Part shown: piece by piece, positions 2,245 to 59,250 of the stretch
Numbering within the stretch: position 1 is the first letter of the stretch
How the letters are laid out: every line of letters starts with the position of its first letter
Source of the DNA: a virus
DNA length: 64,000 bases
Virus record (IMG/VR): IMGVR_UViG_3300027714_000005
Strand: one strand, 5' to 3'
Notes under the pieces: generated by a model
Seen by the model: the letters and a program-made list of their open reading frames with translations, nothing else
Database searches by the model: none
What the model was told of the DNA's origin: nothing
Made by a program: the position numbers and the translations under genes

Positions 2245-2813
2245 TGGAAAAGATTGGTGATGAGTATGTCTTTGTCAAGATGATTGATGACGAAGACATG
2301 AACACTAGGATAGTCAATAGAGTTTGTGATATTGGTGATGAGACTAGTCGTATGACTAATGTTAAGGCAGACTGTACGTTAGGTCAATTACATTGGGAGT
2401 ACCCTGAGTTTACAAAACTAGCAGAGATTATCGAAGAGTTCTGTATAGAGTCTTCCTTAGAGATGAACATGGATAACAAGAACCATAGACATCGGGTGGG
2501 TATGCCTCTCTGGAATAACTTATATATACAATCACAGAAAGTAATTTCTATGTGGGGTACAAGATCAATAAGTGAAGAGGTTACTACACCTCACGACCAT
2601 TGGCCTTGTACATGGGCATTCTGTTATTATATTGATCCACCTGAAGGGTGTTCAAATCTAGTCTTCCCAACACTAGGAAAAGAAATTCAAATTGAGAATG
2701 GTAAATTGGTTATCTTCCGAGGACATCTTATACATGAAGCGATATCCAAAGAGTTTGATGGTGACCGTTTTTGTATTGCAGGAACTGTAGTATTCAACCC
2801 TCCGCAGCAGTAA
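2244..2813 (+). CDS. 2OG-Fe(II) oxygenase-like protein
   Basis: HDH...YY...LVIF..HLIH...R.CIAG DSBH pattern. Confidence 0.7.
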   Translation: MEKIGDEYVFVKMIDDEDMNTRIVNRVCDIGDETSRMTNVKADCTLGQLHWEYPEFTKLAEIIEEFCIESSLEMNMDNKNHRHRVGMPLWNNLYIQSQKVISMWGTRSISEEVTTPHDHWPCTWAFCYYIDPPEGCSNLVFPTLGKEIQIENGKLVIFRGHLIHEAISKEFDGDRFCIAGTVVFNPPQQ

Positions 2814-2840
2814 AGCTTATTATACAGTGAGTAACAACTT

Positions 2841-3305
2841 TTGTCAACCCTAAAAGTAAAAAATAAAATCGGATTCACCTGTAGCGCATTCGACCTGTTT
2901 CATGCGGGTCATGTTGCTATGCTTAAAGAAGCACGGTCTGTGTGTGACTACCTTATAGTAGGACTACAGACTGACCCCACCATAGATCGTCCTGACAAGA
3001 ACAAACCCCTACAATCAATCGCTGAAAGATATTTGCAGGTTCAAGGGTGTAAGTATGTTGACGAGATAATCCCTTACGAGTCAGAAGAGGACTTGTTACG
3101 ACTGATGCAGTTGGTTCAGTTTGATGTACGTATCATCGGTGAAGAGTACAGAGAAAAAGATTTCACTGGAAAGGATTATCAGCTTGACAATTACGTTGAA
3201 GTGTATTATAATAGTAGACATCACAATCTATCAAGTACTAATTTGAGACATAAAATCGGAATTAAAAATGACAACAACAATTACCCCAACCGTAAAGAAA
3301 GTTAA
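2841..3305 (+). CDS. glycerol-3-phosphate cytidylyltransferase-like (TagD family)
   Basis: FDLFHAGH (HxGH), LIVGLQTD, SST motif. Confidence 0.85.
   Translation: MSTLKVKNKIGFTCSAFDLFHAGHVAMLKEARSVCDYLIVGLQTDPTIDRPDKNKPLQSIAERYLQVQGCKYVDEIIPYESEEDLLRLMQLVQFDVRIIGEEYREKDFTGKDYQLDNYVEVYYNSRHHNLSSTNLRHKIGIKNDNNNYPNRKES
3184..3212 (+). promoter_or_regulatory. sigma70-type promoter for gp55
   Basis: TTGACA-17-TATAAT. Confidence 0.8.
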
Positions 3306-27361: not shown

Positions 27362-27388
27362 AAATCGACTACTCAGTCGATTTTTTTT
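27362..27388 (+). terminator. Rho-independent terminator
   Basis: AAATCGACT-actc-AGTCGATTT plus T-run. Confidence 0.8.
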
Positions 27389-27418: not shown

Positions 27419-27426
27419 TATAAATA
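27419..27426 (+). promoter_or_regulatory. gp55 late promoter heading the csg/cyclase operon
   Basis: TATAAATA (T4 late consensus) between terminator and ATG 27432. Confidence 0.7.
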
Positions 27427-30396: not shown

Positions 30397-31429
30397 TGAC
30401 GTAGGTTTGGTTGACCGAGCAGTTGGATGGAGACAGATAGTAAGGAATGAACAACCCTTAGAACCCAATAAGGGTGAAGAGGTGATATCTAAGGACGACC
30501 TTCGCACAGGTGAGGGTCGTCTACAGGTACGATTCAGAGATGACAGTAAATTAAGAATGACCGAACACACACGTATTGTGATTGATAATATGGTGTTCGA
30601 TGATGACCCAAGCAAGTCTGCCTTGGCGATGACGTTTGCCCAAGGTACTGCGAGATTCATATCTGGTCAGTTGGGTAAGGTAGACAAAGAGAATATCAGA
30701 CTCAAGACCCCTACCGCATCTATCGGTATCAGGGGTACAGACTTCACAGTAACCGTTGATGAGTTCGGTAAGACGCTCGTGGTACTTTTGCCAGACGTTA
30801 ACGGAATCTCTTCGGGTGAGATTATTGTTTCGACAATGACAGGTGAAGTCACACTCAACAAACCTTTCCAGTCTACCACAGTAGACGTGATGGAGAACCC
30901 CCCTAGTGCGCCAGCAATCCTAGACCTTACTCTGGATATGTTGAACAACATTATGATTATCAATCCCCCTAAAGAGAAACAGTCTAAAGAAGACTTCATG
31001 GATACTATAAACGCATCCAAGGGCATTAGTTCGTTAGACGTGGACTTTCTTAACGAAGACTTGTTACAAGAAGAAGAACTTGGGAAAGACTATCTGGAAT
31101 TTAATGAACTCGACATCAACTACTTGGACGTTGACTTGTTAGAAGACCTACTGGATAATTTCGATTCTTTGGGAGAGGACGTGTTGCAAGAACAACAGTC
31201 TAGTGGCGACTTACGTATCGAAGGTACTGAAGAAGGGTTCGACCCAGTCACACAGGTTGCCACTATAGTAGAGGGCGACAAGGTGACGATACGCAGAGAG
31301 GTGAATGACAAGGTGTCTATCACGGTGGACAAGTCAGCTGCGACAGTTATAAGTATAGAGCAGGACGGTAAGGAACTAGAGACAATCAAACTTAATGGTA
31401 TCGACAACTTGATAAGTATAGTACAATGA
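30338..31429 (+). CDS. FecR-domain periplasmic protein
   Basis: D.LRTG.G...F.DDS, GTARFISG, TPTASIGIRGTDF; acidic linker; start 30311 or 30338. Confidence 0.85.
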   Translation: MLLFVLFSLTVVSSTLAASNDVGLVDRAVGWRQIVRNEQPLEPNKGEEVISKDDLRTGEGRLQVRFRDDSKLRMTEHTRIVIDNMVFDDDPSKSALAMTFAQGTARFISGQLGKVDKENIRLKTPTASIGIRGTDFTVTVDEFGKTLVVLLPDVNGISSGEIIVSTMTGEVTLNKPFQSTTVDVMENPPSAPAILDLTLDMLNNIMIINPPKEKQSKEDFMDTINASKGISSLDVDFLNEDLLQEEELGKDYLEFNELDINYLDVDLLEDLLDNFDSLGEDVLQEQQSSGDLRIEGTEEGFDPVTQVATIVEGDKVTIRREVNDKVSITVDKSAATVISIEQDGKELETIKLNGIDNLISIVQ

Positions 31430-33246
31430 AGACATGGCACGTATTCGTAACACTTGCGATACTGGTGGGACTGAGGTTACTTGACCCGTTCCTATTGGAG
31501 AGTACTCGACTGTCATTCTTTGACTCATTACAACGTGGTCAAGAGACCCAACTGTCCGAACAGATTGTCCTTGTTGATATTGACGAGGAGACTCTGGCAA
31601 AGTTTGGTCAGTATCCAATCCCCCGTAAGGTAATGGCCGATGAGATTGATAAGATAGAAGGTAGTCTTATTGCGTTCAACATTCTGTTCAGTGAACCTGA
31701 CAGGGCGGGTGGAGACGAATACTTTGCGGACATCCTATCGTGGAAGAATACAGTAGTTGCCATTGCACCGTCCAACAGAACCAACACAGACTACAGACCA
31801 CCCCGTATTGGAACCGCAACGTTCGGTGACAGAGATGCCGAAGACTTCCGACCTTTGGTGGAAGGTATGCTTTTTGCACAACCAGTGATACATGAAGCGG
31901 CACTTGGTTATGGAACTATCTCATCCGCACAGGACGTTGATGGTATCATCCGTAGACAACCACTACTAGAAAACTTTGACAACAGACTCTATCCCGCATT
32001 TGCGTTAGACGTATTGAGGGTTGCAGCCGGAGATTCGTCCTACCAGATATCAACAGACGAGTACGGTATTCAGTTTGTTCGTATTCCCAAGTTCACACCA
32101 ATACCCACAGATAGTCAGGGTAACGTTACAGTCGCATACTGGAATGAGTTCAAGAGATATTCCTTTACTGACCTCTCAAGTATACCAGAGGGGTCTATAA
32201 TCATCGTAGGCGGGAGTTACGCAGGTTCTAGTGTGGTTAGTACACCTATGGGTTCTATGTATCCGCATGACGTACAAGCAAATCTGGTCAAGACAATGAT
32301 CGGGGGTGTGACCATCGAACGACCCCCAGAATTTATTTTCTATGAGCTCTTGACAACTCTTGTATTATGTGGTATAATCCTAGCTCTTCTAGGGAAGGCT
32401 GATATACTAATTTCAGGAGTGTCGTATGTCATCATAATTGGTGGTATTCTGTATGTGGTCAACGAACTATTCAATACCCAGTATCTCCAACTAGACCCAA
32501 CATTCCCAATTATCACATTGACCTTGGTGTTTGCTCACGGTTCCTTTGTTCAGTTCTATGTACAGTTCAAAGCTAAACAACTTATTAAAGGACAGTTCGG
32601 TACGTACCTATCACCCGACATGGTAGATATGTTGGCCAAAGACCCCAGTCTACTGAAGTTGGGTGGAGAGAAAAAAGAGATGACATTCCTCTTCATGGAC
32701 ATTGTAGGATTCACCCCCATATCAGAACACTATAAAAACAAGGACGATGCGGAAGGGTTGGTTATACTCATTAATAACTACCTAAATGAGATGACTAATA
32801 TTATCCTAAATAACGGTGGAACCATAGATAAGTATATGGGTGATTGTATCATGGCGTTTTGGAACGCCCCCTTACCTTGTGAGAATCATGCTGAGATGGC
32901 AGTGAAGTCCGCAATAGAAATAGAAGAGAAGACAGATGAACTTAGACAGAGATACATTGCGGAAGGTTTACCACCGATTAACGTTGGAACTGGTATCAAT
33001 ACTGGGTCTTGTATTGTTGGTAATATGGGTAGTGAGTCACGGTTTGATTATTCAGTCATCGGAGACGCAGTCAACCTTGCCGCAAGACTTGAAGCAACTG
33101 CCGCAAGAGGAGACTATCTCGAATACAAAACTATCTACTCCAAAGCAACCAAAGACCAACTCATAGATATAGAGTCAAGTCCGATAGGACTCATTAAGGT
33201 AAAAGGAAAGGAAGAAGAAATTGAAATCTATACACATAATCGATGA
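31426..33246 (+). CDS. CHASE2-domain class III adenylate cyclase
   Basis: IVLVDIDE..L...GQYP.PR, DVDG.IRR, 3 TM, FMDIVGFT, DKYMGDC, GINTG, YSVIGDAVNLAARLE. Confidence 0.93.
   Translation: MKTWHVFVTLAILVGLRLLDPFLLESTRLSFFDSLQRGQETQLSEQIVLVDIDEETLAKFGQYPIPRKVMADEIDKIEGSLIAFNILFSEPDRAGGDEYFADILSWKNTVVAIAPSNRTNTDYRPPRIGTATFGDRDAEDFRPLVEGMLFAQPVIHEAALGYGTISSAQDVDGIIRRQPLLENFDNRLYPAFALDVLRVAAGDSSYQISTDEYGIQFVRIPKFTPIPTDSQGNVTVAYWNEFKRYSFTDLSSIPEGSIIIVGGSYAGSSVVSTPMGSMYPHDVQANLVKTMIGGVTIERPPEFIFYELLTTLVLCGIILALLGKADILISGVSYVIIIGGILYVVNELFNTQYLQLDPTFPIITLTLVFAHGSFVQFYVQFKAKQLIKGQFGTYLSPDMVDMLAKDPSLLKLGGEKKEMTFLFMDIVGFTPISEHYKNKDDAEGLVILINNYLNEMTNIILNNGGTIDKYMGDCIMAFWNAPLPCENHAEMAVKSAIEIEEKTDELRQRYIAEGLPPINVGTGINTGSCIVGNMGSESRFDYSVIGDAVNLAARLEATAARGDYLEYKTIYSKATKDQLIDIESSPIGLIKVKGKEEEIEIYTHNR
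32350..32378 (+). promoter_or_regulatory. internal consensus sigma70 promoter inside cyclase gene
   Basis: TTGACA-17-TATAAT with extended -10 TG. Confidence 0.65.
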
Positions 33247-33724
33247 TTTCCTAACACCCGAAGATTACGCGGAAGTTATGGAACTTTCAAAAGATATTCA
33301 TCTACACGAAGCTGAAGACTATTCTAAGAAGTATGGTACAAAGACTAACGACTATGCGTGGAAAACGTGGAATGGTTGTAGACGTAGTGACAACTATGTG
33401 GACTTTCTCGACTTTTTCAGTGATAAGGTCAACCTTCACTATAACGTAAAGATTTCTAGGTTAGAGTTCTTTACCCACCCCCTAGAGAAGTTTCCCATAT
33501 ACGAACAGGAGACTCAACAACACATCGATGCCTTGTTCGAGTTCTCTGGTGTCCTCTACCTTGACGAAGGTGCTGTAGGACTAGGTACTACAATTGGTAC
33601 TGAATATGTTGAGTGGAAACCCAATCGATTAGTGACATTCCCCGCATTAACCTACCACAATCCCCACTTTGGCGGAACTGAACGAACCGTTCTGACTTTC
33701 TTCTCTCATAAGAAAAAGTTATAA
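33221..33724 (+). CDS. 2OG-Fe(II) oxygenase-like protein
   Basis: IIDDFL, HID, GVLYL, NRLV.F...YH, R.VLTFF. Confidence 0.7.
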   Translation: MKSIHIIDDFLTPEDYAEVMELSKDIHLHEAEDYSKKYGTKTNDYAWKTWNGCRRSDNYVDFLDFFSDKVNLHYNVKISRLEFFTHPLEKFPIYEQETQQHIDALFEFSGVLYLDEGAVGLGTTIGTEYVEWKPNRLVTFPALTYHNPHFGGTERTVLTFFSHKKKL

Positions 33725-33773
33725 GTAACACCCCCTTTATTCGATCTTAGTCTACTCATTATGAAAATAAGAG

Positions 33774-33838
33774 TGGACAAAGTGTGCCTATTCGGTTATA
33801 ATAAGTACTTAGTTAATCGAGTTGAGAGAGAGAAAGTT
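33774..33838 (+). repeat. early promoter-leader cassette, class A, copy 1
   Basis: TGGACA-17-TATAAT-AAGTACTTAGTTAATCGAGTTGAGAGAG. Confidence 0.85.
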
Positions 33839-33982
33839 ATGATTAAGTATGTATTGAGAAACGTTGTTAATGACCAGTTAGTTAACTGTAAGATGTTTGA
33901 CACTGCTGTCGATGCCATGTGGTATCGTCATACTTATCTTGAACGTGATACTGCTTGGGTTGACCAAGTGGAGGTGAAGTAG
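33839..33982 (+). CDS. small early hypothetical protein
   Basis: Start reassigned to ATG directly after leader. Confidence 0.55.
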   Translation: MIKYVLRNVVNDQLVNCKMFDTAVDAMWYRHTYLERDTAWVDQVEVK

Positions 33983-34265: not shown

Positions 34266-34507
34266 TTAATGAAAATGGTATTGAAGTAATCCCTACCCAT
34301 ATTGGTGGCCTGTGGAATATAACTCATAACATGGCGGTAATGGAAACCGATGTCAATGAATACTTCTACAACCCTGAGTTGGACAAGTTTGGTAACAAAG
34401 ATGACTGGGTCTGCAAAGACGGTTGGGAACGTATCATCGTATCCAATTATCTGACTGCACAAGAAGTTGACAAAATCTTTTTCAAATTATATTCAAATAA
34501 CGCTTGA
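34262..34507 (+). CDS. hypothetical protein
   Basis: Coupled ORF in early island. Confidence 0.5.
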   Translation: MINENGIEVIPTHIGGLWNITHNMAVMETDVNEYFYNPELDKFGNKDDWVCKDGWERIIVSNYLTAQEVDKIFFKLYSNNA

Positions 34508-34566
34508 CAAACACTGCTGTTGTTGTTATAATAAGTACTTAGTTAATCGAGTTGAGAGAGAGAATT
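34504..34566 (+). repeat. early promoter-leader cassette, class A, copy 2
   Basis: TTGACA-17-TATAAT-AAGTACTTAGTTAATCGAGTTGAGAGAG. Confidence 0.9.
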
Positions 34567-37738: not shown

Positions 37739-37800
37739 TTGACAAAAGGTGCCCAATAGACTATAATAGGTACTTAGTTAATCGAGTTGAGAGAGTTATT
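37739..37800 (+). repeat. early promoter-leader cassette, class A, copy 3
   Basis: TTGACA-17-TATAAT-AGGTACTTAGTTAATCGAGTTGAGAGAG. Confidence 0.88.
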
Positions 37801-58599: not shown

Positions 58600-58660
58600 T
58601 TGACAAAGGGTGCTGTTGTTGTTATAATAAGTACTTAGTTAATCGAGTTGAGAGAGAAAT
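58600..58660 (+). repeat. early promoter-leader cassette, class A, copy 4
   Basis: TTGACA-17-TATAAT-AAGTACTTAGTTAATCGAGTTGAGAGAG. Confidence 0.9.
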
Positions 58661-58849: not shown

Positions 58850-58914
58850 TTGACAAACGTTGCCCTTGTTGTTATAATAAGTACTTAGTTAATCAATTTG
58901 AGAGAGAATATATT
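58850..58914 (+). repeat. early promoter-leader cassette, class A, copy 5
   Basis: TTGACA-17-TATAAT-AAGTACTTAGTTAATCAATTTGAGAGAG. Confidence 0.88.
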
Positions 58915-59182: not shown

Positions 59183-59250
59183 TTGACAAACGTTGTTGTT
59201 GTTGTTATAATAAGTACTTAGTTAATCGAGTTGAAGAGAGAGAATATATC
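59183..59250 (+). repeat. early promoter-leader cassette, class A, copy 6
   Basis: TTGACA-17-TATAAT-AAGTACTTAGTTAATCGAGTTGAAGAGAGAG. Confidence 0.9.

Follow-up and report, generated by a model that had tools for sequence, protein, structure and literature searches.

The 64-kb stretch of DNA analysed here (the window) belongs to a T4-like marine myovirus and carries a gene for a 606-residue class III cyclase. The protein consists of a CHASE2 domain (Pfam PF05226, residues 9-316, E = 2.6e-39), three transmembrane (TM) helices, with hydrophobic stretches at residues 306-380, and a class III cyclase domain (PF00211, Guanylate_cyc, residues 416-599, E = 1.4e-18). Asp425, Lys469, Asp473, Asn550 and Arg554, which are invariant in our alignment A1, correspond to the two metal-binding aspartates, the substrate lysine and the transition-state asparagine and arginine. 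Class III catalytic domains are active as dimers. The gene order csgF, csgG, curlin-like, FecR, cyclase is common to the window, Pelagibacter phage HTVC008M and Methylophilales phage Melnitz, and the cyclases of the latter two are 44% and 36% identical, respectively, to that of the window. The curli operon of pelagimyophages and of Melnitz has been described previously (PMC7029224, PMC9004378); the word cyclase is absent from both main texts, and no intragenic promoter is described there. The operon and the signals that precede it are as follows.

27362-27383, + strand: intrinsic terminator with a 9-bp stem and a T-run, which would insulate the curli/cyclase operon from upstream early transcription
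27419-27426, + strand: TATAAATA, a late promoter of the T4 type, from which the mRNA for the full-length cyclase presumably starts; the first gene of the operon (ATG 27432) begins 5 nt further on
31426-33246, + strand: the CHASE2 cyclase gene

TATAAATA occurs at eight sites in the window, all on the + strand and most of them just ahead of gene starts. Since the operon sits behind both the terminator and this element, the full-length cyclase is most simply regarded as a late protein.

An early-type promoter inside the cyclase gene

The earlier note had placed a consensus promoter with an extended -10 TG at 32350-32378, within the cyclase gene, at the point where CHASE2 ends and the TM helices begin and about 850 nt from the next gene. 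The site lies where the note had put it, and its elements are listed here.

32329-32343, + strand: AT-rich tract resembling an UP element (about -56 to -42), of which 32329-32339 (GAATTTATTTT) is invariant in eight diverged relatives
32350-32355, + strand: -35 hexamer TTGACA, formed by codons Leu309 (TTG) and Thr310 (ACA) and invariant across the clade
32370-32378, + strand: extended -10 TG (32370-32371) and -10 hexamer TATAAT (32373-32378; TATACT in relatives)
32385, + strand: predicted transcription start, about 7 nt past the -10, from promoter geometry

The spacer, read from the window sequence, is 17 nt long (32356-32372), and the two hexamers match the sigma70-type (housekeeping) -35/-10 consensus at 12 of 12 positions. 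The promoter occupies codons 309-318 of the gene, at the start of the first hydrophobic helix after CHASE2, in agreement with the Pfam boundary at residue 316. The open reading frame starting at 33221 is the next gene, 843 nt past the -10. Transcription in vivo from a start near 32385, early in infection, would be the expectation from this anatomy. A second, TATACT-like element (GATATACTA) is found at 32397-32403, about +12 to +18 relative to the predicted start, where the ATA codon of Ile327 is invariant in the clade; it could be a chance occurrence or a sigma-dependent pause element.

To place this site among the other promoters of the phage, we counted perfect TTGACA-N16-18-TATAAT sites. 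The window contains 15, against 0.04 expected from shuffles, with 14 on the + strand and one on the - strand. The 32350 site is the sole perfect promoter deep within a gene; the other 13 on the + strand lie 7-56 nt ahead of a gene start, and many of them have in common TTGACAA, TGTTATAAT and a recurring leader that ends in GAGAGAG. The 32350 site resembles these T4-like early (host sigma70-type) promoters in its hexamers, 17-nt spacer, TG, TTGACAA and AT-rich upstream tract. It differs from the intergenic members of the set, several of which carry the leader cassette AAGTACTTAGTTAATCGAGTTGAGAGAG, in that it has no cassette, is far from the next gene start and lies 309 codons into a gene of the late operon.

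We further characterized the site by its conservation. A scan of viral contigs for cyclase homologues yielded 80 loci of 44-100% identity, from which a codon alignment was made. A second viral scan, with one of the relatives (L009) as query, returned one further sequence (L111), which was left out of the analysis, and a metagenome scan with the FPIITLTLVFAHG codons revealed no lineages beyond those of the viral scan. TTGACA-17-TATACT with the TG is kept at the same codons in L004/5, L006, L008/L030, L009, L011 and L012/13 (75-86% amino acid identity), while the spacer sequence varies. The eight distinct relatives differ at 34-65% of 4-fold degenerate sites, which is near saturation. The bases that are nevertheless invariant among them are GAATTTATTTT, TTGACAA, the TG, and the TATA and final T of the -10. 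Among degenerate codons whose amino acid is invariant in the eight relatives, 61 of 377 are codon-invariant gene-wide (Leu 2/31, Thr 3/23, Ile 8/39), compared with 7 of 8 eligible codons at residues 302-318 (binomial P = 2e-5). Residue 316 is Gly, Val or Ala (GGT, GTT or GCT), and the sole changing base is one that is dispensable to the promoter. In a set of near-identical strains (L083-L087), the promoter is unchanged and the gene as a whole shows 0-13 differences, so that these strains are too close to be informative.

We then reshuffled synonymous codons within each gene and counted the sequences with a site of 11/12 or better at the promoter position. Ten sequences have such a site at residue 309, against 0.16 expected, all from one clade of 10 distinct sequences and about six lineages. 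The earlier note had proposed conservation of the promoter bases at synonymous sites in homologous phage cyclases as a check on its reading, and this result bears it out. On the maximum-likelihood tree the history of the promoter consists of one gain and two losses (L007 and L010). Distant homologues, including those of HTVC008M and Melnitz, are without the site.

The same gene provides a negative control. A promoter look-alike at residue 467 (window 32825-32852) is encoded by the conserved catalytic motif IDKYMGDCIM and is found in 26 sequences against 20 expected under the same codon shuffle. It reaches a 12/12 match (TTGACA-16-TATAAT) only in L077 and L082, is 9-11/12 elsewhere, and its synonymous positions drift freely. 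Because the shuffle reproduces only the residue-467 site, we conclude that this one is imposed by the protein and that the residue-309 site is selected at the DNA level. The pair illustrates how synonymous-codon nulls can separate a selected intragenic promoter from a protein-imposed look-alike. The number of perfect sites in the window, the conservation in relatives and the codon shuffle together argue that the 32350 promoter is not a chance match; it is very probably genuine and maintained by selection.

A candidate internal start at Met419

Downstream of the promoter, the earlier note had pointed to an in-frame ATG at 32680 preceded by GGAGAG at 9 nt, which would open a 188-residue product exactly at the first catalytic strand. 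The positions, spacing and length are correct.

32665-32670, + strand: GGAGAG, a Shine-Dalgarno (SD)-type motif 9 nt before ATG 32680, on the Gly414-Glu415 codons of the conserved LGGE[KR]KEM
32680-33246, + strand: candidate internal in-frame open reading frame, Met419-Arg606, the catalytic domain alone
32686-32694, + strand: TTCCTCTTC, which encodes Phe-Leu-Phe; in the predicted hairpin it is paired to the SD-type motif, and the ATG lies in the loop

A product starting at Met419 would hold the whole catalytic fold. Its best solved relatives are the catalytic domains of Pseudomonas aeruginosa CyaB and Synechocystis Cya2, the native sensors of which are, to our knowledge, not CHASE2. Both structures (PDB 3r5g, E = 1.8e-37, and 2w01, E = 3.9e-30) were obtained from soluble constructs of 198-208 residues that begin a few residues before the Met419 position (5 residues for the 198-residue CyaB construct); these are engineered truncations and not natural isoforms. 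A stand-alone cyclase annotated to an 'Acinetobacter phage' was considered as a natural precedent and rejected, its neighbours mfd, hscA and fdx making the contig look like bacterial chromosome.

Nested in-frame products are known from phages, such as the two products of T4 gene 49 and T7 gene 4A/4B. The two forms from T4 gene 49 arise from different transcripts. In these genes translation also begins in frame at an internal codon that has a ribosome-binding site of its own, which yields a shorter protein without the N-terminal domain, and the same could hold here. Unlike them, the short form of the cyclase is a candidate from sequence, and its start residue is ancestral to the protein family and not a phage innovation. 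Every one of the 79 other distinct phage homologues, with or without the promoter, has LGGE[KR]KEM, bar Melnitz (Ile); among 80 bacterial CHASE2 cyclases, 68 have Met at the position of Met419, 11 have Leu and one has Ile. Since the motif is present in promoter-less phage and bacterial homologues, the ATG and its purine run predate the promoter.

The GAGAG-type ribosome-binding site that the earlier note ascribed to this phage is real and belongs to its repeated promoter-leader cassette. For ATG419, a set of SD-type motifs was fixed beforehand and counted at -16 to -4. Nine of the 10 promoter-bearing sequences have such a motif, compared with 3.5 expected from their own codon usage, whereas promoter-less homologues are at chance level (25 of 68, 28.4 expected). 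The excess is significant by sequence (Fisher P = 0.002) and less so by lineage (about 0.02), the lineages being few and related. The motif is built from different codons, either GGA-GAG or GAG-AGA. As a background, 16 of 488 internal in-frame ATGs in the window have an SD-type motif. The ancestral motif is in line with the earlier caveat that the GGEKKEM codons could create the ribosome-binding site by chance; in promoter-bearing lineages the SD is commoner than codon chance.

Other features of the region are less favourable to initiation. In promoter-bearing sequences, the 60 nt surrounding ATG419 have more structure than the codon null predicts (mean z = -1.1, compared with +0.2). The SD pairs with a pyrimidine run just past the ATG (TTCCTCTTC in the window; TTTCTCTTC or TTCCTG in others) in the window, L011-13 and L030, about half of the promoter-bearing lineages. 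Residues 405-418 show no significant extra synonymous constraint, with 4 of 11 eligible codons invariant. Two further starts just past the predicted transcription start were rejected: GTG 32419, in frame, is directly abutted by its own AGGAG with zero spacing, and the ATG of AGGAG-N6-ATG at 32426 is out of frame and begins a mini-ORF of 3 codons, which is not conserved in relatives. The proposal of two isoforms therefore stands in part. The promoter is conserved, the full-length gene lies in a late operon and the fold from Met419 would be complete; the start motif is ancestral and the SD is in a predicted hairpin in about half of the lineages. We put the chance that a sensor-less catalytic-domain polypeptide is made early, at some level, at somewhat short of even.

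Downstream genes and the role of the promoter

The predicted early transcript would continue past the cyclase stop codon into the following features.

33221-33724, + strand: 167-aa gene that shares 26 nt with the end of the cyclase gene and lacks a promoter of its own; it would be the first gene carried complete on the early transcript
33774-33802, + strand: the early promoter that follows (TGGACA-17-TATAAT), whose leader contains GAGAGAG and precedes ATG 33839

The N-terminus of the 167-residue protein, IIDDFLTPEDY, may resemble 2OG-Fe(II) oxygenase-like phage proteins. It has no Pfam match, and its only match is to PHROG 274, labelled 'DNA endonuclease V' (E = 1.6e-7). The leader of the predicted transcript contains no terminator and gave no hit in Rfam (E <= 1), and shuffled sequences fold just as well (z = +1.33).

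A promoterless gene lies directly 3' of the cyclase in 4 of the 6 promoter-bearing lineages: the 167-aa gene in the window, L008/L030 and L011-13, and pstS with a 107-aa gene in L004/5. In the latter (5916-7247 of L004/L005), a PstS-like phosphate-binding protein of 332 residues and a 107-residue exported protein replace the 167-aa gene; neither gene has a sigma70-type promoter, and the nearest one upstream is the internal cyclase promoter. L006 and L009 keep the internal promoter, yet their next promoter is 66-130 nt past the cyclase stop with no gene between, and in L006 a remnant of a deleted 167-aa gene follows the cyclase. L007 has lost the promoter and kept the 167-aa gene; in L010, where the internal promoter is also lost, a perfect promoter lies 24 nt past the cyclase stop. 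Counted by lineage, promoter and promoterless gene occur together in four, the promoter alone in two, the gene alone in one and neither in one, which reveals no link. Thus, with L006, L009 and L007 breaking the pattern, promoter presence does not track downstream gene content. Retention in L006 and L009 is itself weak evidence either way, because their terminal branches are short. In line with the earlier caveat that the promoter may simply serve 33221, the transcript would serve that gene equally.

We give about an even chance to the reading that a selected early promoter lies within the TM1-coding segment and has early transcription of 3' sequence as its main role. The full-length CHASE2 cyclase would then come from the late transcript, together with the curli and FecR genes, starting at TATAAATA (27419) behind the terminator. 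Early in infection, host RNA polymerase with its main sigma factor would start at about 32385 and produce a transcript that spans only the final 860 nt of the cyclase gene, the 167-aa gene that overlaps it and anything beyond. Long untranslated leaders are exposed to Rho-dependent polarity. As the leader would be so exposed, and as the 33221 start overlaps the cyclase end, initiation at Met419 would help the downstream gene too. Translation from Met419 would be a likely accompaniment of early transcription, with ribosomes covering the ~840-nt leader and feeding into the 33221 start. What counts against this reading is the lack of a match between promoter presence and downstream gene content in L006, L009 and L007, and the leader itself, which at 843 nt (295 nt to Met419) is unlike those of the other 13 promoters (7-56 nt). 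An early/late duality of the cyclase locus is plausible on these predictions.

It is possible, although we consider it doubtful, that the promoter is kept in order to make an early soluble, sensor-less cyclase (Met419-Arg606), which would raise cAMP before the late CHASE2-controlled enzyme. The position of the promoter between sensor and catalytic domain is consistent with such a purpose, as are the SD-type motif ahead of an ATG at the first catalytic strand, its excess over codon expectation in promoter-bearing sequences through different codon combinations, the retention of the promoter in L006 and L009 without a promoterless downstream gene, and the close agreement in start with the soluble CyaB construct. 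Met419 and the GGE[KR]KE codons are ancestral, however, in the phage homologues bar Melnitz and in most bacterial ones; the ATG region is structured, with the SD paired in the window, L011-13 and L030; residues 405-418 show no significant extra synonymous constraint; and the lineages are few and related. The short protein would also be without its TM anchor and without the segment ahead of the catalytic domain that usually promotes dimerisation. The wider scenario of one gene with two temporally separated forms, an early unregulated catalytic domain and a late cyclase coupled to CHASE2, FecR and curli, with the SD motif co-evolving with the promoter, is likewise a tentative one.

We regard it as unlikely that the site does not serve as a promoter in vivo and is kept as another DNA-level signal, for RNA polymerase sequestration or by a codon or amino acid constraint that our null did not capture. 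T-centred codons, which favour hexamers of this kind, abound where TM helices are encoded, and L007 and L010 have lost the site, in L007 with no visible compensation. Against this, the observed footprint of conservation fits the UP-like tract, -35, TG and -10 base by base and skips the spacer, the codon shuffle falls far short of the ten sites observed, and all other perfect sites on the + strand precede genes. Service to an overprinted gene in the +1 frame of the catalytic-domain coding region (32936-33166; 76 aa, including a hydrophobic stretch) is very improbable. In most homologues this frame stays open over 50-106 codons, compared with only 4-28 for the +2 frame, and codon invariance within it is mildly raised (14 of 55, against 16% gene-wide). 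Its openness is nonetheless expected from the NNT-rich codons of a very conserved Gly-rich motif, its start ATG arises from conserved Asp/Asn-Glu codons, and the frame is broken in L010 and L018, which are close relatives, as well as in many of the more distant homologues. We judge this open reading frame to be probably a by-product of codon composition.

In our interpretation, the locus holds an intragenic early promoter that is well supported and whose gene context is new, and the short isoform is a hypothesis that can be tested. Purifying selection on a promoter within the cyclase gene would imply that part of the operon is wanted at a different time, which bears on the function of the curli/FecR/cyclase operon (PMC7029224, PMC9004378). 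The locus also offers a simple experimental handle, namely one fragment, one predicted start and one predicted 21-kDa product.

Early promoters elsewhere in the window

The repeated early promoter-leader cassette has the form TTGACAAA..GTTGC..TTGTTGTTATAAT, followed by AAGTACTTAGTTAATCGAGTTGAGAGAG and then ATG. Copies are found at 34504-34566, 37739-37800, 58600-58660, 58850-58914 and 59183-59250, with a variant at 33774-33838. The only perfect promoter on the minus strand, at 2819-2847 (TTGACAAAAG...TGTATAAT), has an AT-rich upstream tract and points leftward, antisense into the + strand gene at 2244-2813. No minus-strand open reading frame of more than 45 residues lies downstream of it, and it could be a source of early antisense RNA. 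The stretch 2813-3268, between this promoter and a + strand promoter at 3184, may be non-coding. The GAGAG-type leaders also bear on gene starts: the longest-ORF starts at 33761, 34552, 35049 and 29629 are probably too early, and better starts follow such leaders at 33839, 34567, 35118 and 29662.
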